Shown here piece by piece: positions 35,590-64,000 of a stretch of DNA of 64,000 nt (positions are counted from its first letter, which is position 1; each line of letters begins with the position of its first letter). The stretch comes from a bacterium. GTDB lineage: Bacteria; Eisenbacteria; RBG-16-71-46. Below the pieces are notes generated by a model, which was given only the letters and a program-made list of their open reading frames with translations, was not told the origin of the DNA and made no database searches. The DNA is taken from positions 3,674 to 67,673 of the forward strand of contig JANNWR010000153.1 of assembly GCA_031408715.1 (NCBI GenBank), read 5' to 3'. The translations under genes were made by a program, and so were the position numbers.

Positions 35590-36023
35590 AAACGTTCCAG
35601 CGGCATTCCGTCCCGTCGTGGCGGGTGAGTGACGTGCGTGCGATCCGGCCGGGCTGGCTGCTGGTGGCCCTGCTGCTGCTGAGCATGCTGCTGCTCGAAG
35701 TCTGGCAGCAGTCGGCGGTCGCAAGTCTGTCGGTTCGCGCCGGCAAGGCGAACGACCTGCTCAAGCGCGCCAGCAACGAAATGGAATGGACGCGTGCGCA
35801 GCTCGATCGTGAGGCGACGCGAGCCGAAGTCGGCACGCTGGCGTTCAGCGCGGGTGTGCGGCCGGGCGATGCCGCCCAGGTCGTCTGGCTGCCGTCGGAC
35901 TATCTCGAGGAGGACGGAGCGATCGCGAGCGTGGAACGCTCGCCGGAACTGCTCGCTCAGGCGGGTCGCGCGCTCCAGTCACTCGTGCCGGAAGCCATGG
36001 CACGGGGACGCCACGTGAACTGA
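35586..36023 (+). CDS. ftsL: cell division protein FtsL-like
   Basis: ATG 35586 overlaps the rsmH stop. It has a short cytoplasmic N-terminus, one TM helix (WLLVALLLLSMLLLEVW), then a coiled-coil and a C-terminal ...AGVRPGDAAQVVWL. Its position between rsmH and ftsI supports the call. Confidence 0.7.
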   Translation: MKTFQRHSVPSWRVSDVRAIRPGWLLVALLLLSMLLLEVWQQSAVASLSVRAGKANDLLKRASNEMEWTRAQLDREATRAEVGTLAFSAGVRPGDAAQVVWLPSDYLEEDGAIASVERSPELLAQAGRALQSLVPEAMARGRHVN

Positions 36024-36127
36024 TCCGGTCCGCCGTCAGGCGACCGGAGCGTCGTACCGGCCGCGTCACAGCACCGCGCATGTGGGGCCGGCGGTCTGCG
36101 TGAACCGCCGTTCCATGGAGGGAACAG

Positions 36128-41198: not shown

Positions 41199-41220
41199 GA
41201 TTCCGGCGAGGAGGCAATCC

Positions 41221-44824: not shown

Positions 44825-45984
44825 AGATCCTCATTGCGGGCGGCGGCACGGGCGGTCATGTGTTCCCCGGAATCGCCGTGGCCGAGGAGCTGAAGGCGAG
44901 CTTTCCCGAAGTCGAAGTGGTGTTCATCGGCGGCAAGCAGGGGATCGAGGCCACGGCCGTTCCCGAGGCGGGCTTTCGCCTGCGCACGCTCGCGACCGCC
45001 GGGTTCCCGCGCCGTCGCTGGTGGCGCTGGCCGTGGGCGGCGCTCGTCAACGTGTTCGGCTTCCTGCAGGCCGTCTTCGTCATCCTCAGCGAACGGCCGA
45101 AGGCGGTGCTCGGCACCGGTGGCTACGTGAGCGGCCCCGTGTCGGTGGCGGCCAAGCTGTTCGGAGTGCCCTTGCTGCTGCAGGAACAGAACAGCATCCC
45201 GGGGCTCACGAACCGCTGGCTGTCGCGCCTCGCCGACGAAGTGCACCTGTCGTTCCTCGAGGCGCGCAGCCACTTCCCGCGCCGCGATCATCTCAAGGTC
45301 ACCGGGAACCCGGTGCGCAGTTTCATCCTGTCGGGAGAACGGGATCCGGCGATGCGGGAGTTCAAACTCGACCCCAACCGCCCGACGCTGTTCGTCTTCG
45401 GCGGCAGCCTTGGCGCCAAGCGCATCAACGCCGCGGCGGTCGATGCGTTGCGCCGGTTGAAGGACCGGGTCGACGTGCAGTGCATCCTGCAGACCGGCAA
45501 GGACGACTTCGAGTCGGTCCGTGCCACGGTCGCTCAGGAGAAGCTCCCGGCCACGGTGCTGCCGTTCGTGAAGAAGATGCATCTGGCCTATGCCGCTGCC
45601 GACCTCGTCGTCTGCCGTGCCGGTGCGATGACGCTGGCCGAGATCGCGGTCTGTGGCCGGCCGAGCATCCTGGTGCCCTATCCGTTCGCCGCGCACGACC
45701 ATCAGCGCGTCAATGCCCAGAACCTCGCCGACCGCGGAGCCGCGGTGGTCATCGAAGACGGCGAGCTGACGGGCGAGCGCCTGGCCAAGGAACTGGCGCA
45801 CCTGCTCGCCGACAAGACGGCGCTGTCGCGCATGTCCGCGAACGCGCGATTGTTCGCCCGCCCGGACGCCGCCTCGCGCCTGGCGCGCTCGCTGGTCATG
45901 TGGGCCGAGGGCAAGGCCGGCGGCGTGGAGCCCGAGCATGAGTACGAGGACGGCGACTTCAACGATGTGAAAGAGGGACGGTAG
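44821..45984 (+). CDS. murG: UDP-N-acetylglucosamine--N-acetylmuramyl-(pentapeptide) pyrophosphoryl-undecaprenol GlcNAc transferase
   Basis: ATG 44821 overlaps the ftsW stop. Motifs are KILIAGGGTGGHVFPGIAVAEEL and CRAGAMTLAEIAVCGRPSILVPYP...DHQRVNA. It has a ~30-aa acidic C-terminal tail. Confidence 0.9.
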   Translation: MKILIAGGGTGGHVFPGIAVAEELKASFPEVEVVFIGGKQGIEATAVPEAGFRLRTLATAGFPRRRWWRWPWAALVNVFGFLQAVFVILSERPKAVLGTGGYVSGPVSVAAKLFGVPLLLQEQNSIPGLTNRWLSRLADEVHLSFLEARSHFPRRDHLKVTGNPVRSFILSGERDPAMREFKLDPNRPTLFVFGGSLGAKRINAAAVDALRRLKDRVDVQCILQTGKDDFESVRATVAQEKLPATVLPFVKKMHLAYAAADLVVCRAGAMTLAEIAVCGRPSILVPYPFAAHDHQRVNAQNLADRGAAVVIEDGELTGERLAKELAHLLADKTALSRMSANARLFARPDAASRLARSLVMWAEGKAGGVEPEHEYEDGDFNDVKEGR

Positions 45985-45988
45985 CCAC

Positions 45989-47383
45989 ATGTACGGGAGA
46001 ACCCACCGCATCCACTTCATCGGTATCGGCGGCAGTGGCATGAGCGGGCTGGCCGAGGTTCTGCTCAACATGGGCTATGAGGTCAGCGGCAGCGACTTGA
46101 AGGCCACCGACGTCACCGACCGTATCGTCAGCCTCGGCGGGCGCGTGTTCCCCGGGCATGCCGCGTCGAACGTGGAAGGCGCGCAGGTCGTGGTGTACTC
46201 GTCGGCGGTCAAGCCCGACAATCCCGAACTCTCGGCGGCCCGCGCGGCCGCGATCCCGGTCATCCCCCGCGCCGACATGCTGGCCGAGCTCATGCGCATG
46301 AAGTACGGCGTCGCCATCGGCGGCTCGCACGGCAAGACGACGACGACGAGCATGGTCGCGGTGGTGCTGCAGCGCGGCGGGCTGGACCCGACGATCGTCG
46401 TCGGCGGACGGCTCAAGGCACTCGGGGCGAACGCCCAGTTGGGGCATGGCCGCTTCCTCGTGGCCGAGGCCGACGAGAGCGACGGCTCGTTCCTGCGCCT
46501 GGCGCCAGCCGTCACGGTGATCACGAACATCGATCGCGAGCACCTCGACCACTACAAGGACCTGGACGACATCCGCCAGGCGTTCATCTACTTCGCGAAC
46601 CGGGTGCCGTTCTACGGCGTCAGCGTGTTGTGCGTCGACGACGAACACGTGCGCGGCATCCTGCCGAGCGTGACCAAGCGGCACATCCTGTACGGCACGA
46701 GGCCCGGCGCCGAGATCCGTGGTGTCGACCTCACGCTGAAGCCACAGGGCTCGGTGTTCCAGGTCGAAGCGGCAGGGCGCATGCTCGGCGAGATCGAACT
46801 GCACGTACCCGGCCGGCACAATGCGCTGAACGCGCTGGCGGCCGTGGCCGTGGGCCTCGAGCTGGAGATCGGGTTCGCGCACATCGCCGAGGCGCTGGCG
46901 GGCTTTCGCGGCGTGGGACGGCGCTTCGAACTGCGCGGGGAAGCGGCGGGTGTGCGCGTATTCGACGATTACGGTCATCATCCGACCGAGATCGCCGCGA
47001 CTCTGGCCGCCGCCAAGGGGCTCGGGGGCCGGGTGCTGATCGTGTTCCAGCCGCATCGTTACTCGCGCACGGAGGCGCTGCGCGCGGAGTTCGGTCGTTG
47101 TTTCGGCGATGCCGACATGGCCTGGGTGCTCGACGTGTACGCCGCGGGCGAACCGCCGATTCCCGGCGTGAGCGGGCGGACCGTGGTGGATTCCGCGCGT
47201 GAGCAAGGGGCCTCGCACGTGCACTTCACGCCCACGCATGCGGAGGCGGTCGAGGCCGCACTGCGCGAGGCGCGCGCCGGCGACGTGCTGCTGACGCTGG
47301 GTGCGGGCGACGTCTCGAAACTCGGGGACCTCCTGCTGGCCGGGCTGCGGCGCACCGGCGCGGTCGCTGGCGGCGAGCGATGA
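45989..47383 (+). CDS. murC: UDP-N-acetylmuramate--L-alanine ligase
   Basis: Motifs are IHFIGIGGSGMSGLAEVLLNMGYEVSGSD, GSHGKTTTTSM and DDYGHHPTEI. Confidence 0.9.
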   Translation: MYGRTHRIHFIGIGGSGMSGLAEVLLNMGYEVSGSDLKATDVTDRIVSLGGRVFPGHAASNVEGAQVVVYSSAVKPDNPELSAARAAAIPVIPRADMLAELMRMKYGVAIGGSHGKTTTTSMVAVVLQRGGLDPTIVVGGRLKALGANAQLGHGRFLVAEADESDGSFLRLAPAVTVITNIDREHLDHYKDLDDIRQAFIYFANRVPFYGVSVLCVDDEHVRGILPSVTKRHILYGTRPGAEIRGVDLTLKPQGSVFQVEAAGRMLGEIELHVPGRHNALNALAAVAVGLELEIGFAHIAEALAGFRGVGRRFELRGEAAGVRVFDDYGHHPTEIAATLAAAKGLGGRVLIVFQPHRYSRTEALRAEFGRCFGDADMAWVLDVYAAGEPPIPGVSGRTVVDSAREQGASHVHFTPTHAEAVEAALREARAGDVLLTLGAGDVSKLGDLLLAGLRRTGAVAGGER

Positions 47384-48267
47384 GCGCGCGCCCCACTGCT
47401 GGCACGAAGGGGAGACGCAGCATGATGACGCGTTACCAGGGCAAGGCACTCGAACGCGGGCCGGTCGCTCGTGGCAAGAACCCGCGCCAGACCGGGCTGC
47501 CGGTCCAGAAGTCACTGCGCATCCTCGCGGTCATGGGGGGATTGATCGCGCTCGCCATGGTTCCGTGGGCGGACCTGCGGAAGAAACTGCTCGTCATCGA
47601 CCGCATCCAGGTCACCGGCCTGCGCTATCTGGATGCCAGCAAGGTCCGCAAGCGCTCAGGGCTCGCCACCGGGCAGGACCTGTGGGACCTCGACGTCACG
47701 CGAGCCCGGCAGATGGTGCTGCTCGAGCCGCGCATCGCCAGCGCGCGCGTGCGCCGCTCGGGTTTGCGCGGCGTCGAGATCCAGATCGTGGAACGGGTGC
47801 CCATGCTGGCGGTCGACCACGGCGAGCCGTGGGAGATCGATGCCGAGGGCGTGCTGCTGGAGCCGCTCCAGGCCGGCGTCGTCGCCGACGTGCCGCTGCT
47901 GGCGGGCCCGGATTTCTCGAACCGTCGTCCCGGCAGCCTGATCCAGACCCCCGAGGTGCGAAGAGGACTCGCGTGGACGGCGATTTTGAGCGACAATGCG
48001 CTCCGGCTCGCCGGGCAGGTCTCGGAGGTGGACGTCTCCGATGCCCGCATCACCCGACTCGTGTTGTTGAACGGTGTTCGGGTGGTCGCTCCGGCGTGGC
48101 CGAATGGCGCGCGGCAGTTGTCCGGACTGCGCGCCACGCTCGCCGATCTCAGTGCAAAGGGCATGACGCCCCGAGAGGTCGACGTGCGGTTCAAGGATCA
48201 GATCGTCGTGCGCGGTGCCAAGCCGGATCACCCCATCGCCACGACCACGACATCTCGCGAGAGTTGA
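47380..48267 (+). CDS. ftsQ: cell division protein FtsQ (POTRA domain)
   Basis: ATG 47380 overlaps the murC stop; an alternative start is ATG 47422. It has one TM helix (LRILAVMGGLIALAMV). A POTRA-like segment follows (IDRIQVTGLRYLDASKVRKRSGL...G.DLWDLD). Confidence 0.75.
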   Translation: MSARPTAGTKGRRSMMTRYQGKALERGPVARGKNPRQTGLPVQKSLRILAVMGGLIALAMVPWADLRKKLLVIDRIQVTGLRYLDASKVRKRSGLATGQDLWDLDVTRARQMVLLEPRIASARVRRSGLRGVEIQIVERVPMLAVDHGEPWEIDAEGVLLEPLQAGVVADVPLLAGPDFSNRRPGSLIQTPEVRRGLAWTAILSDNALRLAGQVSEVDVSDARITRLVLLNGVRVVAPAWPNGARQLSGLRATLADLSAKGMTPREVDVRFKDQIVVRGAKPDHPIATTTTSRES

Positions 48268-48289
48268 AGCCACCGAGGGAGGGACCCCC

Positions 48290-49525
48290 ATGGCGCAGGC
48301 TGCAAAGATCTACGCTGGACTGGATATCGGCACCACGAAGATCTCGTGCATCATCGCCGACCAGAGCGCCTCGGGTGAACTGCGCATCGTGGGAGTGGGT
48401 AACTCTCCCAGCGAAGGACTGCGTCGCGGTGCCGTGGTCGACCTCGAGAAGACCGTCGCCAGCATCATGCGCGCGGTGGAAGAGGCCGAGCGCATGGCCG
48501 GTGTCCAGGCCAAAGGCGTGCACGCCGGTATTGCGGGCGACCACATCCGCAGCCTCAACAGCCGCGGGGTCGTGGCCGTGTCGCGCAAGGACAACGAGAT
48601 CCATGCCGCCGACGTCGCGCGGGTGATCGAGGCCGCCAAGGCCATCGCGATCCCCACGGACCGCGAGATCATCCATGTCATCCCGCAGGAATTCATCGTC
48701 GACGATCAGGACGGCATCAAGGATCCGGTCGGCATGAGCGGCGTGCGCCTGGAAGCCGAAGTGCACATCATCACCGGCGCGGTCACGAGCGCGCGCAACA
48801 TCTGCCGCGCCATCCAGCGCGCCGGGCTCAAGGTCTACGACCTCACACTCGAACCGCTCGCCTCGGCGGCCGCGGTGCTCGACGAGGACGAGAAGGACCT
48901 GGGCGTCGTGTTGCTCGATCTGGGCGGCGGCACGACCGACGTCGCGGTGTTCCACGAAGGTGCGGTGCGCCACACCAGCATCATCCCATTCGGTGGCGCG
49001 AACGTCACCAGCGACATCGCCATCGGGCTGCGCACACCCATCGACAAGGCGGAGACGATCAAGATCCAGTTCGGCGCCGCGCTCGCTTCCATGGTGCACG
49101 GCGATGAGACCGTGAGTGTGTCGGGCGTCGGGGGCCGAGGCGACAAGGAGATCTCGCGCCAGCTGCTCGCCTCGATGATCGAACCGCGCATGGAAGAGAT
49201 CTTCGCGCTCGCGAACAAGGAAGTCCGCAAGAACCACTTCGCGCCCCTGATCGGTGGCGGCGTCGTGCTCACCGGCGGTACTTCGCTGCTGCCGGGCGCG
49301 GTGGAGCTCGCCGAGCAGGTGTTCGAGATGCCGGTTCGCATGGGGCTGCCTCGCGGCCTCGGTGGACTGTCCGCCAATGTGTGCGATCCGCGCTACGCCA
49401 CGGGTGTGGGGCTGGTGCTGCACGCAGCAAGGTCACACGAAGGGACGTTCGATTTCGTCGAGGTGGGACCGTCCAAGACCCGGGCGAGGTTCGACCTGCG
49501 CAACTGGTTCGCCGACCTTTTCTAG
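48290..49525 (+). CDS. ftsA: cell division protein FtsA
   Basis: Start is ATG 48290 inside ORF 48215..49525. Actin-fold motifs are YAGLDIGTTKISCII, LLDLGGGTTDVAVF and VLTGGTSLLPG. The C-terminal amphipathic helix is RNWFADLF. Confidence 0.9.
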   Translation: MAQAAKIYAGLDIGTTKISCIIADQSASGELRIVGVGNSPSEGLRRGAVVDLEKTVASIMRAVEEAERMAGVQAKGVHAGIAGDHIRSLNSRGVVAVSRKDNEIHAADVARVIEAAKAIAIPTDREIIHVIPQEFIVDDQDGIKDPVGMSGVRLEAEVHIITGAVTSARNICRAIQRAGLKVYDLTLEPLASAAAVLDEDEKDLGVVLLDLGGGTTDVAVFHEGAVRHTSIIPFGGANVTSDIAIGLRTPIDKAETIKIQFGAALASMVHGDETVSVSGVGGRGDKEISRQLLASMIEPRMEEIFALANKEVRKNHFAPLIGGGVVLTGGTSLLPGAVELAEQVFEMPVRMGLPRGLGGLSANVCDPRYATGVGLVLHAARSHEGTFDFVEVGPSKTRARFDLRNWFADLF

Positions 49526-49588
49526 ATCCATCACGCCGGGTGTTGAAGCGGGCATGACGCCCGTGAGCCCGAACCAGGGAGGGTGCAC

Positions 49589-50773
49589 ATGTCCACGTTC
49601 GAACTCGAGATCGACCGGAACAACTCCGCCAAGCTCAAGGTCATCGGCTGCGGTGGCGCCGGTGGCAACGCCGTCAACCGGATGATCGGCGCGGGGCTTC
49701 GCGGAGTGGAGTTCATCGTCGCCAACACCGACATGCAGGCGTTGTCGCAGTCGCTGGCCCCGACGCGTATCCAGATCGGCGTGGGCACGACACGCGGCCT
49801 GGGTTCGGGTGGTGACCCCGCGACGGGCCGTCGTTCGGCCGAAGAAGACGAAGCCGCCATCACCGAGGCGCTCGCCGACGCCGACATGGTGTTCATCACC
49901 GCCGGCATGGGCGGTGGCACGGGCACGGGCTCCGCTCCGGTGGTCGCGCGGCTCGCGCGACTGGCCGGTGCGCTCACCGTGGCCGTGGTCACGAAGCCGT
50001 TCGGTTTCGAGGGCCGCCGCCGTCAGCGTCAGGCTGAAGAGGGTCTGGCCGAACTGCGCGCCGAGGTCGACACCCTGCTGGTGATCCCCAATGAGCGCCT
50101 GCTGTCCGTGGTCGACAAGGCCACATCGCTGTCCGAGGCGTTCGCGGTCGCCGACAACGTCCTGCTCCAGGCCACCAAGGGCATCTCGGAACTGGTCACG
50201 GTGCCGGGCCTCGTGAATCTCGACTTCGCCGACGTCAAGAGCATCATGGCGTGCCGCGGCAACGCGCTCATGGGTACCGGGCGGGGCAGCGGCCCGAACC
50301 GTGCCATCGACGCAGCCAGTGCGGCCGTCTCGAGCCCGCTGCTCGAGGACGTCTCGATCCATGGCGCCGAGGGCGTGCTCGTCAATATCACCGGTGGCCG
50401 CGATCTCACACTGCATGAGGTCAACGAGGCCGCTCAGGTCGTCACGCAGGCGGCGGGCGAAGACGCGAATGTCATCTTCGGAGCGGTCATCGACCCGTCG
50501 CTCGACGGCGACCTGCTCATCACGGTCGTCGCGACCGGCTTCGGTGCGCACAGCCAGGGCATGCGTCTCGCCGAACGTGCCCAGCGCAGCGCGCCGGTGA
50601 TCTCGGCTGCGGCCCTGGCGGCCGCTGCCGCCGTGTTGCCCGAGGGCGCCGACCTGTCCGGGCTGTCCGCGCCGGCGTGGCAGCGTCGTGAAGGCCGGCC
50701 GCAGTGGGGACGCACGGGCTCGCGCGGAGACTCGCTCGAGGTGCCGACGTTCCTGCGCCGCCAGATGGACTGA
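49589..50773 (+). CDS. ftsZ: cell division protein FtsZ
   Basis: Motifs are [16 protein letters not shown], the tubulin signature [13 protein letters not shown], and NLDFADV. The C-terminal peptide is [14 protein letters not shown] 49589 has GGGAGGG upstream; GTG 49583 is an alternative start. Confidence 0.95.
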
Positions 50774-50956: not shown

Positions 50957-52615
50957 ATGGCGTTCCTGTCGTCGCTGGTGAAGTGGGGGCACACGCGCCG
51001 CTACAACGAGGGCATCCTCCACTTCAACCACGGCGAGTTCGAACGAGCAGCGGAGTGCTTCGAGCGCGTGCTGCAGGAAGTGCCGGATCCCAACGATCCG
51101 GATCATTGCCTGGCACTCGTGCATGCCGCCGAGGCCCGCGCCAATCTGGGCCTGGCCTACCAGCATGGCGGCGACTACTCCCGTGCCGAGACCGAGTTCA
51201 CGCGCGCGCTGGAAGAGAATCCCACCTTTCCGGACTTGCGCTACCAGCGCGCCCGCATCTACGAGCGCTCGGGGCGCATCGATGAAGCCATCGCGGACCT
51301 GGAACAAGCGCTCGGCGAGCATCCCCACTATATGGAAGCGCACCTGCTGCTCGCAGTCTGCCTGGGAGCGAAGGGCGACCTCGAGCGCTCGGCCGCCGAA
51401 CTGGGTGAGGCGCTCGCACTCGGGCTCGAGGCCCCGGACTGGGTGACGCCCGAGGTCTCGCGGGAGTGGACCGGCGAGCAGTGGCGCCGGCTGCTTCCGG
51501 GTGCTTCGGACACGCGTTCGGCGCGCGGGCCGCTCGATGAGGCACTGGCGCGACAGCAGGCCGGCGATCTGGCCGGTGCCATCGCCGCGCTCGCGCACGC
51601 CGTGACCGACAAGCCCGGCTACGCCGACCTGCGCTGCCGGCTCGCGAGCCTGCTCGTGGAAGCCAAGCGCTTCGATGAGGCGCTCGGGCACCTGCGCGTG
51701 GCGCTTGAGCTCAATCCGCGTTATCTGGAAGCGCGGATGGTCGCCGCGCGTGCCGAACTCGAGCGCGGCGATGCGGCCGCGGCTGAGTCGCACGTCAGCG
51801 CCGCACTCGAGGCGCACCCGCAGTATCCCGACCTGTGGTTCTGGCTCGGCCTCGTGCGTTTCCGCGGCGGCGACCTGGAGGGCGCGGTCGAGCCGCTCGA
51901 GAAGGCGGTTGACCTGAACCGGCAGTTCGCGCGGGCGCAGCGCCTGTTGGGGCTCGTCTACCACGCTCTCGGCCGCACCGACGACGCCCTGCGCGCCGTG
52001 CGCCGCGGGCTCGCACGCGGCACTGAGGCGGCCCAGGGTGCCCTCGCCGAGTCTCAGTTGCTCTACGAGATGGGGGACCTGTCGGGGGCGGAAGACTCGC
52101 TGCGCCGTGCGGTCGCGGTGAGCCCGGACTGGCCTGATCTCCATCTGGCGCTGGCGCGCGTCCTGCGCACACAGGACCGGCTCGAGGAGTCGGGAACGAC
52201 CTACGAGCGGGCGCTCGAACTGAAGCCGGACTACGACGCTGCTTCGCTCGAACGCGCCGCCCTGGCGCTCGAGATGGGCCGCCCCGACATGGCTGCAGCG
52301 CGGCTCGTCGCGCTGCTGGAACGTCGCGCGAACTGGGCCGATGCGCACGCCCTGCTGGGTCGGGCACGGCTGTCGCTAGGGGATGCCGCGGGTGCCGAGA
52401 CGGCGTTGCGTGCGGCCATCGCCCTGCATCCCGGATTCGCTGCGGCGCGCGCCGACCTGGGCTGGGCACTGCTGCGGCTCGGCCGTGCCATCGAAGCCGA
52501 TCGGGAGTTCGCGTTGGCGCTCGAGCTGGACCCGCTGCATGCGCTGCCGCGCGATCAGATGGCGTGGCGGGAACTCCTGACGACGAGCCGCACCGAGAGC
52601 GGAGAAGCGCGCTAG
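50957..52615 (+). CDS. tetratricopeptide (TPR) repeat protein
   Basis: The 552-aa protein has 34-residue TPR periodicity throughout (e.g. ANLGLAYQHGGDYSRAETEFTRALEENPTFPDL, RARIYERSGRIDEAIADLEQALGEHPHYMEA). Confidence 0.8.
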   Translation: MAFLSSLVKWGHTRRYNEGILHFNHGEFERAAECFERVLQEVPDPNDPDHCLALVHAAEARANLGLAYQHGGDYSRAETEFTRALEENPTFPDLRYQRARIYERSGRIDEAIADLEQALGEHPHYMEAHLLLAVCLGAKGDLERSAAELGEALALGLEAPDWVTPEVSREWTGEQWRRLLPGASDTRSARGPLDEALARQQAGDLAGAIAALAHAVTDKPGYADLRCRLASLLVEAKRFDEALGHLRVALELNPRYLEARMVAARAELERGDAAAAESHVSAALEAHPQYPDLWFWLGLVRFRGGDLEGAVEPLEKAVDLNRQFARAQRLLGLVYHALGRTDDALRAVRRGLARGTEAAQGALAESQLLYEMGDLSGAEDSLRRAVAVSPDWPDLHLALARVLRTQDRLEESGTTYERALELKPDYDAASLERAALALEMGRPDMAAARLVALLERRANWADAHALLGRARLSLGDAAGAETALRAAIALHPGFAAARADLGWALLRLGRAIEADREFALALELDPLHALPRDQMAWRELLTTSRTESGEAR

Positions 52616-52670
52616 AGCGCTGCGCTGATCAGCGCGTGTCCCCGGTCGGTCCAGCGGTCGGGGAAGAGCG

Positions 52671-52700
52671 CAGGCCCGGTTCCGCGAGGAACCGGGCCTG
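52671..52700. terminator. bidirectional hairpin terminator between convergent TPR gene and rpmB
   Basis: CAGGCCCGGTTCC-GCGA-GGAACCGGGCCTG forms a perfect 13-bp stem with a 4-nt loop. It is located between the stops at 52615 (+) and 52725 (-). Confidence 0.6.
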
Positions 52701-52724
52701 CGATATCAGTCCAGCGGTCGCGCG

Positions 52725-52943
52725 TCAGACGGCGGCTGCGGCGGCCTTCACTCCGCGGACGGCCTTCTGGATCTTGCCACCGCGGATGCAGCGCGTGCAG
52801 ACCGGGACCTGCTTCGCACGGCCGTCCACCAGCGCGCGCACATTCTGGATGTTCGGCTTGAACATGCGCTTGGTGATGTTGTTGGCGTGGCTGACATTCT
52901 GGCCCGCCATCCGCATCTTGCCGCAAACGAAGCACTTCGCCAT
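52725..52943 (-). CDS. rpmB: 50S ribosomal protein L28 (Cys-containing zinc-ribbon form)
   Basis: The translation is [41 protein letters not shown]...[16 protein letters not shown] lies 7 nt upstream of ATG (52943). The listed ORF 52725..52988 was trimmed to this start. Confidence 0.9.
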
Positions 52944-53020
52944 GGGAATCTCCTTGCAGAAACACGGCCCGCGGGGGGGCTTGCGCACCCGTGGGCCTCG
53001 AGGTCATCAAGAGCCGGGGG

Positions 53021-53050
53021 ACTATAGCTGGGAGGCCCCCCGGCTGGCAA
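53021..53050 (-). promoter_or_regulatory. candidate sigma70 promoter for rpmB
   Basis: On the minus strand, TTGCCA (53050-53045) is followed by an 18-nt spacer and TATAGT (53026-53021). This lies ~78 nt upstream of the rpmB ATG. Confidence 0.4.
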
Positions 53051-53193
53051 GCGGCCGCAGGCCCGCGTCCGGGGCGGTTCCCGGGGAGCTCCGGAGGGGT
53101 CCTGTCGCCAGCCATGGCCCGCTTCCCGGACCGGGCTCCTGCCCCTTATGGTGCGGCGAGCCCCACCGCTGCGCACTTTCGCTCTGCGACCCC

Positions 53194-55302
53194 ATGACCA
53201 CGACCCGACACTCCGGCACCGCGCCCCCCATGGACCCGCGCACCCGTGTGCAGTTCCTGCCCGGGATCGGGCCCAACCGTGCGCTGGCGTTCGAGCGCCT
53301 CGGCATCGTCACGCTCGAGCATCTGGTGCGGCACTACCCGCGTACCTGGCTCGACGCCAGCAAGACGGTCGCGATCAAGGACCTGTGTGCGGGCGAACTG
53401 CTGACGGTGATCGGCGAGGTGAAGCATGCCGCCGCACTGCGCACGCGTGGCGGGCGCGGTGACTTCGCGGCCACCGTTCGTGACGGCACCGGCACGCTGC
53501 CGCTGTACTTCTTCGGGCAGTCGTGGCTGGCGCGCTCGCTCACACCCGGGACACGTGTGGTCGTGAGTGGTGAGCTGTCGGGCGGCTTCGAGCGCCAGAT
53601 GCTGAACCCGATGTTCGAAGTGCTCGAGGGCGACCTGGAAGACACGCTGCACGCCGGACGCCTGGTGCCGGTGCATGCGCTCACGCGCGGCGTGACCGCA
53701 CGCGGCATGCGCCAGGCGGTGCGCCGGGCGCTCGATCTGGTGGCGGACCAGATCGCCGACCCCGTGCCCGCCGAGGTCGCGTCCACGCAGGGGCTCTTGT
53801 CGCTCGGCATCGCGCTCAAGGATCTGCACTTCCCACACGACGCCGCGGCACTCGAAGCCGCGCGCGCTCGTCTGGCGTTCGAGGAACTGTTCCTGCTGCA
53901 GATGGTCATGGGCATCCGCCGCCGCGCGCTCTCCGAGGAGGGCCGCGCGCTGGCACTCACGGGCTCGGGTGAGCTGGCTGCCAGGGTGCGCGCTTCCTTA
54001 CCCTTCAAGCTCACCGAAGGGCAGGCAGAAGCCGTGCGGGACATCACCACGGACTTAGCGCAGCCGCGTCCCATGCACCGGCTCGTCGTGGGCGATGTCG
54101 GCAGCGGCAAGACCGTGGTCGCGCTGCTCGCCGCCTGTGCTGCGCTCGAGGCGGGCCAGCAGGCAGCACTGCTGGCGCCGACCGAGATCCTCGCCCGCCA
54201 GCACGGGGCCAGCCTGACACGGCTCGCCGCCGCCGCCGGTGTGCCGGTCGCCGTGCTGACGGGAGCCTCGACGGCGAGCGAGCGCCGTGCGCTCCAGGCG
54301 CGGCTGACGGCGAACGAGCCGCTGCTCGTGGTCGGCACGCACGCGCTGCTCGAGGAGCGCCTGAAGTTCCCGTCACTGGCGCTCGCCATCGTCGATGAAC
54401 AGCATCGGTTCGGTGTCCGTCAGCGTGCTGCCCTCGCGGCCAAGGGCGTGCTGCCGCACATGCTCGTGCTCACGGCCACGCCCATCCCGCGCACGCTGCA
54501 GTTGGCGTGGTTCGGGGACCTCGACCTGTCGGTGATCCGCGGCCGGCCGGCGGGGCGCGGCCGGCTGGTGACGCGTGTCACCGATGAGGGCCGGTTCCCG
54601 CAGGTCGTCGACTTCATGTCGAAGGAACTGGCGCAGGGCAGGCAGGCGTATGTGGTGGTGCCCACGATCGAGGAAGGCGCGCGTGCGGACCTGAAAGCTG
54701 CCGAGACCGAAGTGCAGCGGCTGCGTGGCCAGCCGCTGCTCGCCAAGTACCAGCTCGGGCTCCTGCATGGACGCATGAAGCCCGACGAGAAACAGGCGGT
54801 GATGGACGCGTTCCGCGCCGGCGAGGTGCAGGTGCTCGTCGCCACCACCGTGATCGAGGTCGGGGTCGATGTGCCGAAAGCCACGCTCATGGTGGTCGAG
54901 AACGCCGAGCGCTTCGGGCTCACGCAGCTGCACCAGCTGCGCGGGCGCGTCGGGCGCGGGCAGCATCGCTCGGTCTGCGTGCTGGTGGCGGGGGCGATGG
55001 CCGGGGCGCGTTCGCGCGAGCGGCTGGCGATCATGGCGACCACCGACGACGGCTTCGAGCTGGCCGAGGCCGACCTGCGGATGCGCGGGCACGGCGAGCT
55101 GTGGGGGACCCGGCAGGCGGGACTGCCCGACTTGAAGCTCGCCGACCTGGCGAAGGACGAGCCATTGCTGACGCGCGCGCAGGCCGCCGCCGTCCAGGTC
55201 GTGGCCGCGGATGCGCAGCTCATGGGCGCGCCCCATGCCGTGCTGCGTGCCGTGCTGCGCGAGCGCTTCAAGGAAGCACTGGAGCTGGCGCTCGCCGGCT
55301 GA
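53194..55302 (+). CDS. recG: ATP-dependent DNA helicase RecG
   Basis: Start is ATG 53194 in the frame of ORF 52564..55302; the upstream part of that ORF overlaps rpmB and is discounted. It has an N-terminal wedge/OB region. Helicase motifs are GDVGSGKT (Walker A), DEQHRFGV, TATPIPRT and QLRGRVGRG. Confidence 0.9.
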   Translation: MTTTRHSGTAPPMDPRTRVQFLPGIGPNRALAFERLGIVTLEHLVRHYPRTWLDASKTVAIKDLCAGELLTVIGEVKHAAALRTRGGRGDFAATVRDGTGTLPLYFFGQSWLARSLTPGTRVVVSGELSGGFERQMLNPMFEVLEGDLEDTLHAGRLVPVHALTRGVTARGMRQAVRRALDLVADQIADPVPAEVASTQGLLSLGIALKDLHFPHDAAALEAARARLAFEELFLLQMVMGIRRRALSEEGRALALTGSGELAARVRASLPFKLTEGQAEAVRDITTDLAQPRPMHRLVVGDVGSGKTVVALLAACAALEAGQQAALLAPTEILARQHGASLTRLAAAAGVPVAVLTGASTASERRALQARLTANEPLLVVGTHALLEERLKFPSLALAIVDEQHRFGVRQRAALAAKGVLPHMLVLTATPIPRTLQLAWFGDLDLSVIRGRPAGRGRLVTRVTDEGRFPQVVDFMSKELAQGRQAYVVVPTIEEGARADLKAAETEVQRLRGQPLLAKYQLGLLHGRMKPDEKQAVMDAFRAGEVQVLVATTVIEVGVDVPKATLMVVENAERFGLTQLHQLRGRVGRGQHRSVCVLVAGAMAGARSRERLAIMATTDDGFELAEADLRMRGHGELWGTRQAGLPDLKLADLAKDEPLLTRAQAAAVQVVAADAQLMGAPHAVLRAVLRERFKEALELALAG

Positions 55303-55370: not shown

Positions 55371-55757
55371 ATGTCCGGACTGCCTGTTCAGTGCCCCGCG
55401 TGCTCCGCGCGCTACCTGCTTCCCGCCTCGCTGCTGGGGGAGGGTGGCGCCAGCGTGCGCTGTCCTGCTTGCGCCCACGACTTCGGCGTCGACGCGGGCG
55501 GTGGGGTGATTGCCGATGGCGGTGGCGACGCGCTGCGCGCCGTGGCGCGTGCGGTGTTCGACGAGCTGACCCTGCGGCTCGGCGACTCGCTGACGAAGGC
55601 CGCCGGCGAGCGCCGGCTGTTCGCGGAGCACGGGCCCGCGATCATGGAAGCCTGGGACGAGTTCCGGCGGCGCGCCGGGACGCAAGCCTCCTCAAGGCCG
55701 TTCCGGGACGAGATCCGCGACCGCTTCGGCATCGAGCTGTTCCCGCCCGGGGAATAG
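55371..55757 (+). CDS. MJ0042-type zinc-ribbon domain protein
   Basis: The N-terminus VQCPACSARYLLPASLLGEGGASVRCPACAHDF has the CxxC-x18-CxxC pattern of MJ0042-family fingers. The remainder has no recognisable family. Confidence 0.6.
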   Translation: MSGLPVQCPACSARYLLPASLLGEGGASVRCPACAHDFGVDAGGGVIADGGGDALRAVARAVFDELTLRLGDSLTKAAGERRLFAEHGPAIMEAWDEFRRRAGTQASSRPFRDEIRDRFGIELFPPGE

Positions 55758-55886: not shown

Positions 55887-57686
55887 TCAGCGGGTGATCA
55901 AGACCCGTCGCGTGGTTTCGACCGCGCCGCGGCGCAGACGGACGAAGTACACGCCGGGCGCCTGGTGCGCGTCGTCCCACATCAGCTGATGCGTGCCGGC
56001 TGCGAAAGGCCCGCTCGCCAGCACGGCCACCGTGCGGCCCTGGAGGTCGAGCACCGTGGCGAACACCGCCTCGGTATGGGTTATTGCGAACGATACGGTC
56101 AGGCGGCCCGACGTCGGATTGGGGCCGAGTGCGATGCGCGACTCGCGCACGTCGCGGTCCTCAGGTCCGGAGCCAGTTTCGTCTTCGTGCGTGACCGGGA
56201 TGGCGGCGACCGGAAGCGAGATGCCGGTGATGTACTCCTGCGCCTTGGCCCATGCCAGCGCGCCGACCTGACGTCCGAGTCGGCGTGACGCGAGATCGGC
56301 ATCCTCGAAGTGGATGCCACCCAACCGGCGCGAGAAGCCGGCCTCGTCGGCAGCTTCGGAGAACGTGTGCCAGCGCAGCGTGACGTCACGGCTTGGCGCG
56401 ACACCCGGTTCCACCTTGCTGGCCCCCGCCGCGAATCTCACCGAATGCTCGAAGCGGTCGCTGCCCGTGAAACGCTGCAGGATCTCGGCGGCGGCGGCAC
56501 TGAAGCCACTGTGACCCGAAGGATACTCGGCGAACGGCGGCGTGATGAACGTGGCGGGCTGGTAGGGCAGCCAGGCTTCGCCCTGCACCATGGTGCGGCC
56601 GACGCCGGGCACATAGGCCTCGATGAGTTCGCCCGCCTTCAGGAACCGGATGGCGGTGATCGGGCGCTCGGAATCGAACCAGCGCTTGCCTTCCCACACC
56701 GCGATGCCGGCGTCCATGAGTGCGTTGCCGAGCGTGAAGAACATCTTCACGTCGTCCGCGAACGTGTGCGCGTCGCGCGCCGACACGAACTCGGCGAACT
56801 GCGTCCAGTGCCCCGGAGGCTGCTCGGAGCGCGGTCCGTCCGCCCAGTACTCCGCGATCACCTTGCCGCGGTCGTCGAGGTGCGCGTTCAGGTGGATCGT
56901 CTCGCGGGTCTGGCGCTCATACTCACGGCTCGGGAAGCGGGCCGGGCCGGCGGGGCGAAGTGCATCGGACGAGGGCAGCGCGAACGGCGTGACGTCGCCC
57001 CAGTGCGCGCCGACGTAGCCCGGCACCACGAAGCCGCCCGCGCCGTTCGAGAAGCGCAGCGGTTGCCAGCGGTTGGGGTCCAGGATCTGGTCGAGCGTGT
57101 TGGCCGGCAGGTAGCCCGACGGGTCGGAGTACGCGCCGGCGTGCAGGTCGCCCAGCTGGTTGGAGCCATCGGCATGACGGAACGCCAGGAAGTTCGCCGC
57201 ACAGTTGTTGCCGACGCCCGCTGCCGAGGCCAGCTCACGGCTCGTGTCTTCAGGATCGTAGCCAAGCGCGAGCATCCGGGTGCGCGCCAGTCCGGCGCCG
57301 GCAGGGAACAGATCCGTGAGCGCACGGTAGAACGCGAAGCTGAACGCCTGCTGGCGGTGAGCGTCGTCACGCTCCGCCAACGGACGGCGGAAGCCGGGCT
57401 GCGGCAGCGTCGGCACCGCCGCGTCGTCATAGCACGCCCAGGCATCGAAGCCAGCGGTGTAGCTCATGGCGATGGCGCGTGCGGTCATCGGCGGACCCAG
57501 TCGTTGCACGCGGATGCACTCGAGCAGCGTCTCGTTCCACTGGATGACGAGAGTCGGCGGGCCGGCTGGAGGGACCGGGTCGCGGCCACTGCCGGTAGCG
57601 GCGGAGGCAGTCGACAGGCTCAGTGTGGTGAGCATCATCGCGGTGAGCATCACCGCGGCGAGGGTACAGAATGTGCGGATCATCAT
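55887..57686 (-). CDS. secreted PAP2-superfamily / vanadium-dependent haloperoxidase-like protein with FlgD-Ig/T9SS-like C-terminal domain
   Basis: It has a signal peptide (…LSLSTASAATG). PAP2 motifs are K-x6-RP (KRWFDSERP), PSGHSG and SRRLGGIH. The C-terminal ~80 aa read LGPNPTSGRLTVSF...VLDLQGRTV...PGVYFVRLRRG...RRVLITR. Confidence 0.75.
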   Translation of the reverse strand: MMIRTFCTLAAVMLTAMMLTTLSLSTASAATGSGRDPVPPAGPPTLVIQWNETLLECIRVQRLGPPMTARAIAMSYTAGFDAWACYDDAAVPTLPQPGFRRPLAERDDAHRQQAFSFAFYRALTDLFPAGAGLARTRMLALGYDPEDTSRELASAAGVGNNCAANFLAFRHADGSNQLGDLHAGAYSDPSGYLPANTLDQILDPNRWQPLRFSNGAGGFVVPGYVGAHWGDVTPFALPSSDALRPAGPARFPSREYERQTRETIHLNAHLDDRGKVIAEYWADGPRSEQPPGHWTQFAEFVSARDAHTFADDVKMFFTLGNALMDAGIAVWEGKRWFDSERPITAIRFLKAGELIEAYVPGVGRTMVQGEAWLPYQPATFITPPFAEYPSGHSGFSAAAAEILQRFTGSDRFEHSVRFAAGASKVEPGVAPSRDVTLRWHTFSEAADEAGFSRRLGGIHFEDADLASRRLGRQVGALAWAKAQEYITGISLPVAAIPVTHEDETGSGPEDRDVRESRIALGPNPTSGRLTVSFAITHTEAVFATVLDLQGRTVAVLASGPFAAGTHQLMWDDAHQAPGVYFVRLRRGAVETTRRVLITR

Positions 57687-61379: not shown

Positions 61380-61645
61380 TCCATTGCCTCCAGCTCCCGG
61401 GCCCGGTCGGATCCGCCGCGGGGAGCGGGGGCCAGTGGAGATTCGGCGACCGTAGGGGGCGTCCTCGGGGGGTGTCAAGCACTCCGGAGTGCGCCGGTAC
61501 CGAGTGGGAACGGCCGCGTTTCCATGCGCCTCCCGCGTGCGCTCCGTAGTAGGATGTGGTCAGGGGCCCCGCGCTCCGCGCCGTGTCGATATGCGCTTCC
61601 GGCCGGACAGACGGGTGGGACGGGCCCCGTGCCTATGGAGGGCCC

Positions 61646-62062
61646 ATGTCCAGTCACAAGATCGTTCGCTGTCAGCTCCGCCGGAAGGGAACGAAGGAGT
61701 CCGGGCAGGTGCGCTACGTCCCACTCGAGATCTTCGGGCTGTGGGAGCACCTCATGTCGAGCAAGCACGGCTTCGAGGTGGTCGACGCGCGTGCATCCTT
61801 GTGGCTCGACATGGAGGATTCGCCCGAGGCGGCTTACAGCCAGAACCAGTACGACCGCGTCACCGAAGTCACGGCATTCGTCTATTCGCAACGCGACGAC
61901 ATGTTCACGCGTGCGCGCCGCTATTTCCGTAGCGACGAAGCCGACAGCCTGAAGCGCATCTTCCTGTCGCATTACACGGGGGATGAATCCCGCATCCAGA
62001 CCCAGGTGCACGAGCGCACCGGCATCTGGATCGTACGCGAGGCGACGCCCGCACACGCGTAG
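61646..62062 (+). CDS. hypothetical protein (138 aa, no family recognised)
   Basis: ATG 61646 is preceded by GGAGG (61637-61641). The third codon position is strongly G/C, like neighbouring genes, and the amino-acid composition is ordinary. It is followed by a clear terminator. Confidence 0.6.
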   Translation: MSSHKIVRCQLRRKGTKESGQVRYVPLEIFGLWEHLMSSKHGFEVVDARASLWLDMEDSPEAAYSQNQYDRVTEVTAFVYSQRDDMFTRARRYFRSDEADSLKRIFLSHYTGDESRIQTQVHERTGIWIVREATPAHA

Positions 62063-62095
62063 GCCTCGAGCGGTTCACGCTTTGTTCGTGTCTGA

Positions 62096-62130
62096 AGCGC
62101 GCGGCCCCTCCGGAGCCGCGCGCTCTTCTT
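62096..62130 (+). terminator. rho-independent terminator
   Basis: AGCGCGCGGC-(loop CCCTCCGGA)-GCCGCGCGCT forms a 10-bp GC stem, followed by CTTCTT. It begins 34 nt after the stop at 62062. Confidence 0.6.
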
Positions 62131-62474
62131 ATGGCAGGCGGGAGATGTCATGCGGGCGGGTGCTGCGAGCAGGACCGGTCGAACGGGCTCGGCGGGACAC
62201 TTCGCACCCCCCGCAGGGGGTGCTCCGAGGATTCCTGCAGGAGCATGCAGGAAAGCACTGAAGTCGAGCACGGGCCCCGCCGATAAACCTCCGGGAGTCG
62301 CAGGGCGGCGCGGTAGCCGTCAGGGATGTCGGGCGCGAACCGCTCGACCGTTGTGGCGACCCCATCCGTGTCCGGTTTCGCCGGGCACCTCGAGGCCTGT
62401 GGAGAAAGGGCGGCAAGGGGCTCCATGGGACCACCTCGCGAAGGGGTGGGGTCACTACAGGGAAGGAGAGAACC

Positions 62475-63680
62475 GTGGTCGTCGTGAGCTATTCGGGAAA
62501 AGAGATCAACGCCAAGCTGGTCTATTACGGCGCTGGCCTCAGCGGCAAGACGACGAACCTCGAGGCCATCTACGAGGCGGTGCCCGACACCAGCCGCGGC
62601 AAGATGGTGAGCATGAAGACGCAGAGCGATCGTACGCTCTTCTTCGACCTGCTGCCCCTGGATCTCGGTGAGATCATGGGGTTCAAGACCCGGTTCCTTC
62701 TTTACACGGTCCCCGGCCAGGTGTTCTACAACGCCACCCGCAAGTTGGTGCTCAAGGGCGCCGACGCGTTGGTGTTCGTTGCCGACTCCGAAGTCGGCAA
62801 GATGGAGGAGAACAAGGAGTCGTTGGCCAACCTCCGCACGAACCTCGCTGAGTACAACATCAATCTGGATTCCATTCCCTGGGTCCTGCAGTACAACAAG
62901 CGTGACCTCCCGAACGTCTACACGCTCGACGAGCTCAACGCGGAACTCAACCCAGGTAAGGTGCCGTTCTTCGAGTCTGTGGCTCGTGAAGGCAAGGGCG
63001 TGTTTGAAACCTTCCGTGGCATCTCGCATCTGCTGATGGAGAAGGTCACCAAGGACCTGCGCCGTGCGCCCACCGCGACCCAGAATCGTCACGCGCAGAG
63101 CGAAACGGCACTGCCGGCGGCCGAGGACCTGTTGGCGACGCGCGAGCAGGTGCGCTCTTCCGCGCCTCCACTCGCTCCCGCCCAGGCGATCCAGCGCGAG
63201 GCGGCCAGCACGCCGGCTCCGTTGCCCAGTGGGGATGACAAGCTCGACTACGGTCGCGAGATCGAACTGCCGGGAGCTTTGTCGGCAGCCGCAAACCGCG
63301 CCCACGAGTCGCAGATTGCCTCCCTGCCATCGGGGCCGAGCATCATCTCCGACCCCGTCGCACCGTCTGCTCCGGCGTCAGCCTTCCCGCAGCCCTCACC
63401 GGTCTCTCAGCCGGTGGCAACCGCGGTGCAGGCCGTTGCGGTTCCTCAGAACGTTGCTGTCCATCAGCCTGCCCCGTCCGCACCGGAGCCGCAGGTGCCG
63501 CAGTCGGCGCCCGCAGCGCAGCGGGTGAACGCCGCACAGCCTTCGACCTTTGTACAGGTTGCACCCCAGGGCAACGCCGTCGCGGATGCCGCCCCGACCC
63601 AGCTGGTCGTGCCGGTGAAACTCGCTCCGGGGGGTACGTACGAGATCGTGCTGCGCATCGAGGTGGACAAGGCCGCGTAA
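62475..63680 (+). CDS. mglA: MglA-family Ras-like GTPase with ~200-aa Pro/Ala/Gln/Ser-rich C-terminal extension
   Basis: GTG 62475 lies 5 nt after AAGGAG. The G domain closely resembles Myxococcus MglA. Shared elements are KEINAKLVYYGAGLSGKTTN (P-loop), SDRTLFFDLLP (intrinsic Arg), LYTVPGQVFY (catalytic Gln), QYNKRDL (G4) and ESVAREGKGV (G5). Residues ~195-401 are low complexity. Confidence 0.85.
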   Translation: MVVVSYSGKEINAKLVYYGAGLSGKTTNLEAIYEAVPDTSRGKMVSMKTQSDRTLFFDLLPLDLGEIMGFKTRFLLYTVPGQVFYNATRKLVLKGADALVFVADSEVGKMEENKESLANLRTNLAEYNINLDSIPWVLQYNKRDLPNVYTLDELNAELNPGKVPFFESVAREGKGVFETFRGISHLLMEKVTKDLRRAPTATQNRHAQSETALPAAEDLLATREQVRSSAPPLAPAQAIQREAASTPAPLPSGDDKLDYGREIELPGALSAAANRAHESQIASLPSGPSIISDPVAPSAPASAFPQPSPVSQPVATAVQAVAVPQNVAVHQPAPSAPEPQVPQSAPAAQRVNAAQPSTFVQVAPQGNAVADAAPTQLVVPVKLAPGGTYEIVLRIEVDKAA

Positions 63681-63704
63681 GTCCAGCCACCGCAAAGTCT
63701 CCAG

Positions 63705-63756
63705 AGCCCGCGAGGTGCTGTCATGGTTGCCATTGACAGCGGCCTCGCGGGTTCTT
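63705..63756 (+). terminator. rho-independent terminator
   Basis: A nested hairpin has AGCCCGCGAGG / CCTCGCGGGTT as the outer stem (11 bp including a G-U) and GCTGTCA / TGACAGC as the inner stem. It is followed by TTCTT. It begins 25 nt after the stop at 63680. Confidence 0.6.
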
Positions 63757-63762
63757 AGCTTT

Positions 63763-64000
63763 GTGGTTACGGAGGTAGCTACCAAGTCAGCTCGTGCTCG
63801 TCTCGTGTTCGTTGCAATGGTCCTGGCCACGGTCATGTCCTCGAATGCACTCGCGGGTCCGTTGAGCGATGCTGGCGCTGCCGGGTTCGCGCCGCGCGTC
63901 CCGGTGAGCCTGTTCGCGCGTCCCTCCATGGGACTCGACCTTTCCCGCCTGCACTTCACCAGCACCACCACGGTGGGCAGCGGGTGGGGAGGTGGTGGGA
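63763..64000 (+). CDS. secreted protein, 3'-truncated by window edge (start uncertain)
   Basis: The frame is open from GTG 63763 to the window end and is not in the ORF track because no stop is reached. The translation VVTEVATKSARARLVFVAMVLATVMSSNALAGPL... looks like a signal peptide with an ALA-G cleavage site. No well-spaced RBS was found. Confidence 0.4.
   Translation, partial: MVTEVATKSARARLVFVAMVLATVMSSNALAGPLSDAGAAGFAPRVPVSLFARPSMGLDLSRLHFTSTTTVGSGWGGGG

Follow-up and report, generated by a model that had tools for sequence, protein, structure and literature searches.

A tailed MglA-type GTPase of Eisenbacteria with conserved motifs, a terminal module and an RNA leader

MglA is the model for a Ras-like switch that sets cell polarity in bacteria. 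To our knowledge, every MglA studied to date consists of a G domain alone, and other proteins (such as MglB, RomR/RomX and effectors) position it. A gene in a 64,000-nt stretch of DNA from Eisenbacteria, an uncultured and almost unknown phylum, raises the question whether such a switch may also carry a localisation element in its own chain. The stretch, here called the window, belongs to contig JANNWR010000153.1 of assembly GCA_031408715.1. The gene, mglA in the following, is an open reading frame (ORF) of 401 codons at 62475..63680 on the plus strand with a GTG start and a TAA stop, which agrees with its earlier description from the bare sequence (the original prediction), where it had been taken for a tailed, MglB-independent polarity GTPase.

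The G domain and its tail

The G domain (residues 1-197; 62475..63065, +) was assigned by similarity to MglA proteins of solved structure. MglA of Myxococcus xanthus (6h17, 5ymx, 6hjh) aligned to residues 3-193 with an E-value of 1.2e-70 and an identity of about 63%, and MglA of Thermus thermophilus (3t12) with an E-value of 9e-70. Pfam and NCBIfam yielded only small-GTPase matches below threshold for the window protein. The G1 motif G19AGLSGKT26 (19-27) and the G4 motif N141KRD144 were invariant in 115 homologues, and the domain as a whole was almost invariant in alignments of 23 and 115 sequences. The intrinsic arginine finger Arg53 is located beside Thr54 of G2, with SDR53T54LFFD aligning with DRTLFFD of solved MglA. 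The G3 motif YT78VPGQ82 has Thr78 in place of Asp, and Gln82 as the catalytic glutamine.

An intrinsic arginine next to the G2 threonine and a TVPGQ G3 motif define Group-1 MglA (Wuichet & Sogaard-Andersen 2014, PMC4316618). Every Group-1 sequence feature that we tested was present in the window protein, while the single-domain form of about 195 aa and the coupling to mglB were not, the protein being 401 aa long. Thus the MglA hallmarks that the original prediction had read from the first ~195 residues (P-loop, Arg53, TVPGQ and NKRD) all stood, with E-values around 1e-70 to solved MglA, and by its motifs the domain belongs to Group 1. Judged by its sequence, the gene appears to code for a genuine, catalytically complete Group-1 MglA-type Ras-like GTPase that departs from the single-domain, MglB-coupled form of its family.

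The remainder of the protein, residues 198-401, is rich in Ala, Pro, Ser, Val and Gln, nearly uncharged, and ends in ...TQLVVPVKLAPGGTYEIVLRIEVDKAA. Neither Pfam nor NCBIfam matched a domain in this tail, and Pfam found no known domain in the tails of 10 diverse relatives. Long spurious ORFs are common in high-GC DNA, and a tail of this kind could in principle arise from a missed frameshift, a missed stop or the fusion of ORFs; a frameshift, or orthologues no longer than about 195 aa, had been named beforehand as signs of such an artefact. Yet positions 62792-63760 were identical and free of gaps in two independent public metagenome assemblies from freshwater sediment, and the GC content at third codon positions was 0.74-0.90 along the tail, which is of the coding type. 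The window protein is also on record in assembly GCA_031361885.1. The best 119 database homologues were 335-481 aa long, and about two thirds of them aligned over at least 99% of the query. More than 100 homologues kept the terminal module described below in frame after linkers of differing length. One homologue assembled from long reads (L048, 10001-11197) does have frameshifts in its tail, after which it returns to the frame of the module, probably an assembly error. We therefore ruled out an artefact on the grounds of the gap-free assemblies and the in-frame module, and give this explanation next to no chance.

The distribution of the tail was followed in a scan of one genome per GTDB species, which gave 351 loci with relatives. 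The best 80 were analysed, and nearly all of these were labelled Candidatus Eisenbacteria or Eiseniibacteriota. Every complete homologue in the 80 loci had the C-terminal module in frame, barring a few tails that were visibly frameshifted or truncated in the assembly. In the deepest branches (L064, L072, L075, L079, L080) the module was kept, and the rest of the tail, 150-390 aa, was unrelated. By these comparisons the tailed architecture appears to be phylum-wide in Eisenbacteria.

The alignments of 23 and 115 sequences revealed a fixed plan of the tail: a variable stretch, a conserved island, a linear motif, a variable linker and the C-terminal module. The first linker (residues 198-228; 63066..63158, +) was variable in the alignments and predicted to be disordered, with a predicted local distance difference test score (pLDDT) below 50 in AlphaFold2 (AF2). 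It is followed by the island APPxAPxQAIxxEAxxTP (residues 229-250; 63159..63224, +), in which P232, P235, E242 and T246 were invariant or nearly so in the 115 homologues and for which AF2 predicted a short helix at 235-244 with a pLDDT of 71-75. The linear motif KLDYGREIELPG (residues 256-267; 63240..63275, +) has the family form (K/R)(I/L)DYGREIELPG. Among the 115 sequences Y259 and G260 were invariant, and D258, E262, L265 and P266 were each at least 90% conserved.

The hypervariable linker (residues 269-372; 63279..63590, +), composed of 24% A, 17% P, 12% S, 12% V and 12% Q, was free to vary in sequence and in length, from about 60 to more than 350 residues among homologues, and was predicted to be disordered with a pLDDT of ~45-55. 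Over all linkers, AF2 run on the 115-sequence alignment gave a pLDDT of ~40-55; its confidence for the G domain was poor because the alignment is near-invariant there. The low-complexity tail of ~200 aa with a short terminal beta-type module thus held up as it had been foreseen, its plan being kept across homologues, and in the prediction of disorder and structure that had been proposed as a check the tail was largely disordered while the terminal module scored highest. Motifs and module are under strong purifying selection across the phylum.

The terminal module and its counterparts in relatives

The C-terminal module (residues 373-401, ~28 aa; 63591..63677, +) was delimited by conservation and by its amphipathic two-strand pattern VVPVKL-turn-YEIVLRIEV, followed by -DKAA. 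Its family pattern is VVPVxL-turn-YEIV(I/L)R(I/L). AF2 gave it the highest confidence of the whole protein with a pLDDT of 76-92. A search of PDB sequences with a profile of the module found no relative. Tyr, Ile, Leu, Ile and Val on the second strand and Val, Val and Leu on the first form a strongly hydrophobic face; to bury it, the module would need to pack on a partner, on another copy of itself or on the surface of a membrane.

The last two codons (63672-63677) encode -AA. This ending was present in 38 of 250 distinct proteins with the module, compared with 0.2% expected from local composition, a statistic that is inflated by kinship among the 250 sequences. It recurred in distant branches after unrelated residues (...RRAA, ...QYAA, ...ERAA). 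By analogy, it resembles the recognition end of ssrA type for ClpX.

The G domain alone was then compared with 1.84 billion representative sequences in an exhaustive HMMER search, which gave 6446 matches. The best 150 of these were studied; they were 93-55% identical and almost all 300-670 aa long with an N-terminal G domain, and 149 of them were classified by their C-termini. At least 83, and by eye about 100, ended in the two-strand module, which was seen down to a G-domain identity of about 57% and has the wide pattern h-x-h-P-h-x-h, 6-12 residues, h-x-h-(K/R)-h-x-h. We refer to these proteins as the hairpin type.

About 15 of the 149 (P0360, P0368, P0374, P0382 and others) ended in a basic amphipathic peptide, e.g. 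KKKGFFDGLFRKDK, RRFGFLGLFRKK or KKQFFLFRWLFRRG, with a pattern like KKKGFFxGLFRK. We take these ends to resemble the membrane-targeting sequences of MinD and FtsA. Another five or so (P0343, P0345, P0367, P0371) ended in a hydrophobic segment of ~20 residues and, going by that segment, would be tail-anchored. Among the remaining C-termini were some other short endings. A literature search found no paper that links Eisenbacteria with MglA and no description of a tailed or membrane-anchored MglA. The hairpin type belongs to a larger, apparently undescribed set of tailed MglA proteins with alternative anchors, and the original prediction was right to call the window protein an uncharacterised variant.

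Because the tails of the sister classes end in an obvious membrane anchor, the far end of the tail probably encodes localisation. We tentatively favour the view that the window protein is a tethered MglA switch in which the C-terminal module serves as an anchor or docking element. A complete G domain would be joined by a long disordered linker to a conserved beta-hairpin-like module; the module would keep the switch in one place in the cell, such as the membrane, a scaffold or a self-assembly, while the linker would let the G domain reach effectors. The helix 235-244 and the motif KLDYGREIELPG would be candidate binding sites for regulators or effectors. Tethering to the envelope, as the original prediction had it, has indirect support in the relatives with membrane-anchor ends, and is for the beta-hairpin type an inference by analogy with them.

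The module might also drive assembly by itself. The disordered region and a C-terminal oligomerisation module would then self-assemble into a polar or mid-cell hub, a scaffold or condensate to which the G domain recruits clients; PopZ and RomR are precedents of self-assembling hubs. The long low-complexity region is in keeping with this, as are the need of an amphipathic beta module to bury its hydrophobic face and the position of mglA, which closes the division and cell-wall (dcw) cluster 11.7 kb downstream of ftsZ and stands there in conserved synteny. However, the linker sequence is unconserved and low in charge, and the dcw synteny may be merely inherited gene order. We regard such a hub as quite improbable.

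MglB, the upstream gene and the RNA leader

The original prediction had noted the absence of a Roadblock/LC7 gene nearby. MglB of M. xanthus, its sequence verified against 6h5b, and MglB of T. thermophilus were searched, with the HMMER filters off, against all ORFs in the six frames of the window and of 81 loci (1.12 Mb), and no match with E<0.1 was obtained. Pfam detected no PF03259 among the ~50 genes of the window. Overall no mglB was present within 6-10 kb in ~85 loci of the hairpin type, so the absence was borne out for the window and for the whole family. This includes four distant hairpin types (P0256, P0290, P0311, P0330) with no Roadblock gene within 6 kb. On the other hand, the two anchored-type neighbourhoods examined (among L082-L084), those of P0374 with an amphipathic and P0367 with a transmembrane end, had a Roadblock/LC7 gene on either side of mglA, and PATAN and TPR (tetratricopeptide repeat) genes close by.

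The lack of an adjacent mglB would be explained if the tail were a built-in regulator that folds back on its own G domain as a pseudo-effector, as a lock like that of a guanine nucleotide dissociation inhibitor, or with an activity like that of GTPase-activating proteins (GAP) or guanine nucleotide exchange factors (GEF), and so replaced MglB. GltJ of M. xanthus offers a precedent: its disordered linker contains a short motif that is bound by MglA-GTP in competition with an intramolecular interaction, and its zinc ribbon binds both the linker and MglB (PMC11135422). GltJ makes the conserved helix and DYGREIELPG candidate docking sites, and it likewise keeps alive the autoregulatory view, in which the tail motifs act on the G domain of the same chain. 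In addition, the confidence of the single-chain AF2 model was highest for the module and the helix 235-244, and the missing mglB of the ~85 hairpin-type loci contrasts with the MglB kept by the two anchored relatives. Yet the spread of linker lengths, from ~60 to more than 350 residues, speaks against an exact geometry within the molecule, though it does not forbid one. The G domains of the hairpin class differed from those of the anchored class and of M. xanthus only at positions 13, 33, 43, 75, 94, 98 and 187, mostly in hydrophobic residues, so that substitutions relative to the MglB-coupled relatives are few. These seven positions could not be interpreted as a class-specific change at the regulatory interface. 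Taken together we consider a built-in regulator unlikely.

Equally, the gene could be part of an ordinary MglA/MglB module whose mglB is located elsewhere in the genome, the tail being a lineage-specific decoration that leaves the regulatory logic unchanged. The G domain is ~63% identical to that of M. xanthus MglA with every catalytic residue present, and the anchored relatives with their flanking MglB genes show that a tail and MglB are compatible. Orphan Group-1 MglA genes are known (59 of 449; PMC4316618). The profile search with MglB spanned all taxa; its best 120 matches were mainly Myxococcota-like and none was labelled Eisenbacteria. However, for 87% of MglA genes mglB is no more than four genes away (PMC4316618), yet none of the ~85 hairpin-type loci had one within 6-10 kb, and the strong purifying selection on the tail motifs and the terminal module is at odds with a neutral decoration. 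An ordinary module with a remote mglB thus seems rather doubtful to us.

What stands next to mglA instead is a gene for a protein of 138 aa, up138 (61646..62062, +), directly upstream and on the same strand. Its true start, MSSHKIV, lies inside the mechanical ORF 61556..62062. It had 535 homologues, nearly all of 137-139 aa, the best 120 of which shared 68-91% identity; those with a name were all annotated 'hypothetical protein' and came from metagenome-assembled genomes of Eisenbacteria. R8, C9, H41, D55, H109 and Y110 were among the invariant residues. The profile of up138 matched in 69 of 81 loci, always adjoining mglA and including the deep branches L064, L072, L075 and L080. The gene was absent, with upstream sequence available, from L043, L063, L067, L068, L070, L071 and L079, and also from the four distant hairpin-type relatives examined. 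Judging by these matches, the family appears restricted to Eisenbacteria. The original prediction had described mglA as monocistronic. Terminator-like hairpins do stand on both sides of the gene, but with a conserved gene directly upstream on the same strand it is not isolated.

We checked whether up138 is a diverged MglB/Roadblock protein (PF03259; fold a-b-b-a-b-b-b). Pfam and NCBIfam returned no match, a profile search of PDB sequences found nothing, and hhalign against MglB gave a probability of 0.13%. The AF2 model, of moderate confidence (pLDDT 73.6, predicted template modelling score 0.41), had the order b-b-a-b-b-b-a-b, and Foldseek against the PDB detected no significant fold (best E 0.15, TM ~0.3). 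A Roadblock identity was rejected at this sensitivity. In its order b-b-a-b-b-b-a the model is reminiscent of a Longin domain; as none was among the Foldseek matches, we make no such claim. The gene occupies the position where the Roadblock gene stands in the anchored relatives examined, and where mglB stands in Myxococcus. From this synteny, up138 is the best candidate for a dedicated partner of MglA.

The gap between up138 and mglA, 412 nt in the window (62063-62474), had been reported as non-coding. Its length was confirmed and is conserved (median of 370 nt in 56 loci), but it is not empty, as the 3' half has a conserved nucleotide sequence and contains a structured RNA leader (62353..62460, +). 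RNAalifold on 23 short-form leaders, a covariance model and the fold of the single sequence, which yielded the same structure, defined four helices. The closing helix P1 is formed by pairing of GCGACCCCAUCC with GGGUGGGGUC, P2 is a variable hairpin, P3 a short helix, and P4 bears an invariant 31-nt core, GUGGAGAAAGGGCGGCAAGGGGCUCCAUGGG. RNAalifold gave 39 pairs, 12 of them with compensatory changes. The covariance model matched once per locus in 65 loci, always ending at the start of mglA, and nothing elsewhere in 1.2 Mb save one weak antisense match and a second copy in L005. In the latter locus the leader occurs twice and inverted, at 16-143 (+) and 1590-1718 (-), probably owing to an assembly chimera.

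In 65 distinct leader sequences 97.8% of the cells were paired, compared with 33-51% in slid controls; 21 pairs changed on both sides, compared with 7-12, and the covariation score was 0.275, compared with at most 0.084. P3 showed visible GC/AU exchanges (39:25, 44:16, 38:12). Fitting the alignment to the model, as was done here, biases it towards the structure; despite this, the slid controls and the exchanges in P3 make the structure convincing. An Rfam cmscan of 61400-64000 at E<=1 found no family matching the leader; the only match, CC1840 at 62026-62124, does not overlap it and scored 27 bits against a gathering score of 50. As a side observation, assembly graphs built from short reads of the source metagenomes are interrupted at the leader core and in the G domain (62396-62429 and 62400-62821), and their loose ends carry P3 variants of other species. 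Hence several Eisenbacteria with near-identical leader and G domain share these sediments.

The leader is followed by the Shine-Dalgarno sequence GGAAGGAG (62463..62470, +), read off the sequence 5 nt before the GTG, and the leader alignments showed a GGAGG-like block kept at this site. A metatranscriptome contig of run X21 covered 62311-62554 with one mismatch, from upstream of P1 into the coding sequence. Thus mglA is transcribed in the sediments with the leader contiguous with the coding sequence. No metatranscriptome contigs covered 62038-62256. A terminator-like GC-rich hairpin followed by CUUCUUAU is located after up138 (62096..62132, +; -28.5 kcal/mol, z -2.6), and a long one followed by a U-rich run after mglA (63703..63768, +; -48.2 kcal/mol, z -6.9); a simple terminator scan listed neither.

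The start of the X21 contig, the stretch free of RNA and the hairpin after up138 suggest that mglA has its own promoter. This may perhaps reside in a block at 62252..62300 (+) that was conserved in an alignment of 54 intergenic regions and holds TGAAGT-N17-GATAAA (62259-62287), although a sigma-70 promoter scan of the region returned no sites. The data suggest a structured 5' untranslated region of ~170 nt that ends just before the Shine-Dalgarno sequence. The leader is a candidate for a new cis-regulatory RNA of ~110-170 nt.

In the tethered switch that we favour, mglB, the usual GAP gene, does not stand alongside; up138 would be the dedicated partner across most of the phylum, and the leader RNA would probably control expression after the start of transcription. 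Several points weigh against this reading. DSSP assigned no strands to the module in the AF2 model despite the high pLDDT. The C-terminus of the window protein has an alternating beta-type pattern with no amphipathic basic/aromatic helix, and the hairpin-class termini, that of the window protein included, stay below the hydropathy threshold for a transmembrane segment. The module, being of beta type, is thus neither of the two anchors seen in relatives, which therefore do not imply membrane binding for it. The G domain lacks a clear class-specific change at the regulatory surface. Owing to its absence from a subclade and from the distant hairpin types, up138 is not a universal partner of the hairpin. 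Finally, mglB may lie elsewhere in the genome, as the search covered the window and 10 kb on either side in the loci. The original prediction is borne out in part, with a real, tailed MglA and no neighbouring mglB, while its MglB independence is no more than possible.

A bolder version would see a GTPase module of new design that works without MglB: a switch permanently tethered through its disordered linker to a beta-hairpin anchor, with up138 as a non-Roadblock GAP/GEF or effector, and with a riboswitch-like or protein-binding leader that gates its synthesis. We hold this to be improbable. If it were true, and taken with the anchored relatives, it would mean that localisation by linker and anchor arose in Ras-like GTPases of prokaryotes either separately from eukaryotic Ras, Rab and Rho or earlier than in these.

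The wider gene order of the window was derived from codon-position GC and Pfam. Riboflavin genes and a large polysaccharide/glycosyltransferase cluster are followed by the dcw cluster (34504-50773; mraW to ftsA and ftsZ). Next come genes for a TPR protein (50957-52615), recG (52564-55302), a Zn_ribbon_4 protein (55371-55757) and a secreted protein like vanadium chloroperoxidase (VCPO-like)/PAP2 (55887-57686, minus strand). Genes for a major facilitator superfamily (MFS) transporter, a GT4 glycosyltransferase and a lipid-A-type acyltransferase, all on the minus strand, lead to up138 and mglA on the plus strand. Downstream a secreted Gly-rich protein of ~155 aa with a signal-peptide-like N-terminus starts at 63770 (63770..64000, +) and runs off the window; no family match was obtained for it. 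No Roadblock, type IV pilus, gliding or flagellar gene was present in the window, and Pfam detected no bactofilin domain among its genes. The C-terminus of the VCPO-like protein matched Por_Secre_tail with 26.1 bits at a cut-off of 27, which hints at a type IX secretion system in the organism.

The order recG, Zn-ribbon, MFS, GT4, acyltransferase / up138, mglA, small secreted protein, trpA was strongly conserved in the 80 loci, and in most loci mglA was followed by a gene of ~150-180 aa and then trpA. A frame of recG, mglA and trpA was also recognised in the four distant hairpin types, with recG in three of the four, trpA in three and the Zn-ribbon gene in three. Synteny with mglA extends phylum-wide to the TPR, recG and Zn-ribbon genes, recG and Zn-ribbon being shared with several distant hairpin types. 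The small Zn-ribbon gene has a parallel, and a parallel only, in the zinc-ribbon domains that act in the MglA/MglB circuits of Myxococcus (GltJ). The distance of 11.7 kb from ftsZ places mglA at the end of a complete division/cell-wall cluster. Beyond mglA and trpA most loci (L048 15714-20717 and matching positions elsewhere) had a conserved regulatory neighbourhood with genes for a membrane SpoIIE/PP2C phosphatase with a PDZ domain, a weakly FlgM-like small protein, a histidine kinase and a MinD/FlhG-like ATPase, as well as for two regulators, one a sigma-54 response regulator and the other CheY-like.

Comparison with known GTPase systems

With MglA of M. xanthus and T. thermophilus the window protein shares the G domain with P-loop, Arg53 finger, TVPGQ and NKRD. 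Those proteins have ~195 aa, are single-domain and are encoded beside mglB, whereas the window protein has a conserved tail of ~200 aa with a terminal module, no mglB nearby, up138 upstream and an RNA leader. SofG, a paralogue of MglA, carries extensions and has a specialised role; its features are an N-terminal extension and an association with bactofilin. The window protein has no such extension, its G domain starting at residue 2 and being far closer to MglA proper, and by Pfam the ~50 window genes scanned include no bactofilin domain. SofG of M. xanthus and MglA of Bdellovibrio bacteriovorus are orphan Group-1 members (PMC4316618). A literature search found for neither of them a description of the tail plan of two motifs, variable linker and hairpin module.

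The anchored tailed relatives likewise start with a Group-1-like G domain (55-60% identical), which a long linker of low complexity connects to a short element at the very C-terminus. What sets them apart is that this element can be recognised as a membrane anchor and that, in both loci examined, two Roadblock/LC7 genes flank theirs, where the window protein has a beta-type end and no Roadblock neighbour.

Eukaryotic Ras, Rab and Rho have a hypervariable C-terminal region with a lipid anchor, and FtsZ has a disordered C-terminal linker with a conserved C-terminal peptide. The window protein would follow the same design logic of switch domain, flexible linker and terminal element. This is a functional analogy only, as it has no CAAX box or lipidation motif and the tails are not homologous. 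If a large and diverse clade has a switch with its own tether and a localising element at the end, bacteria would have a second means to position a small GTPase, and its tether design would parallel the hypervariable region plus anchor of eukaryotic Ras-superfamily proteins. The locus also yields testable objects in a phylum-specific candidate partner of unknown fold and in a well-supported new structured RNA right before the ribosome-binding site.

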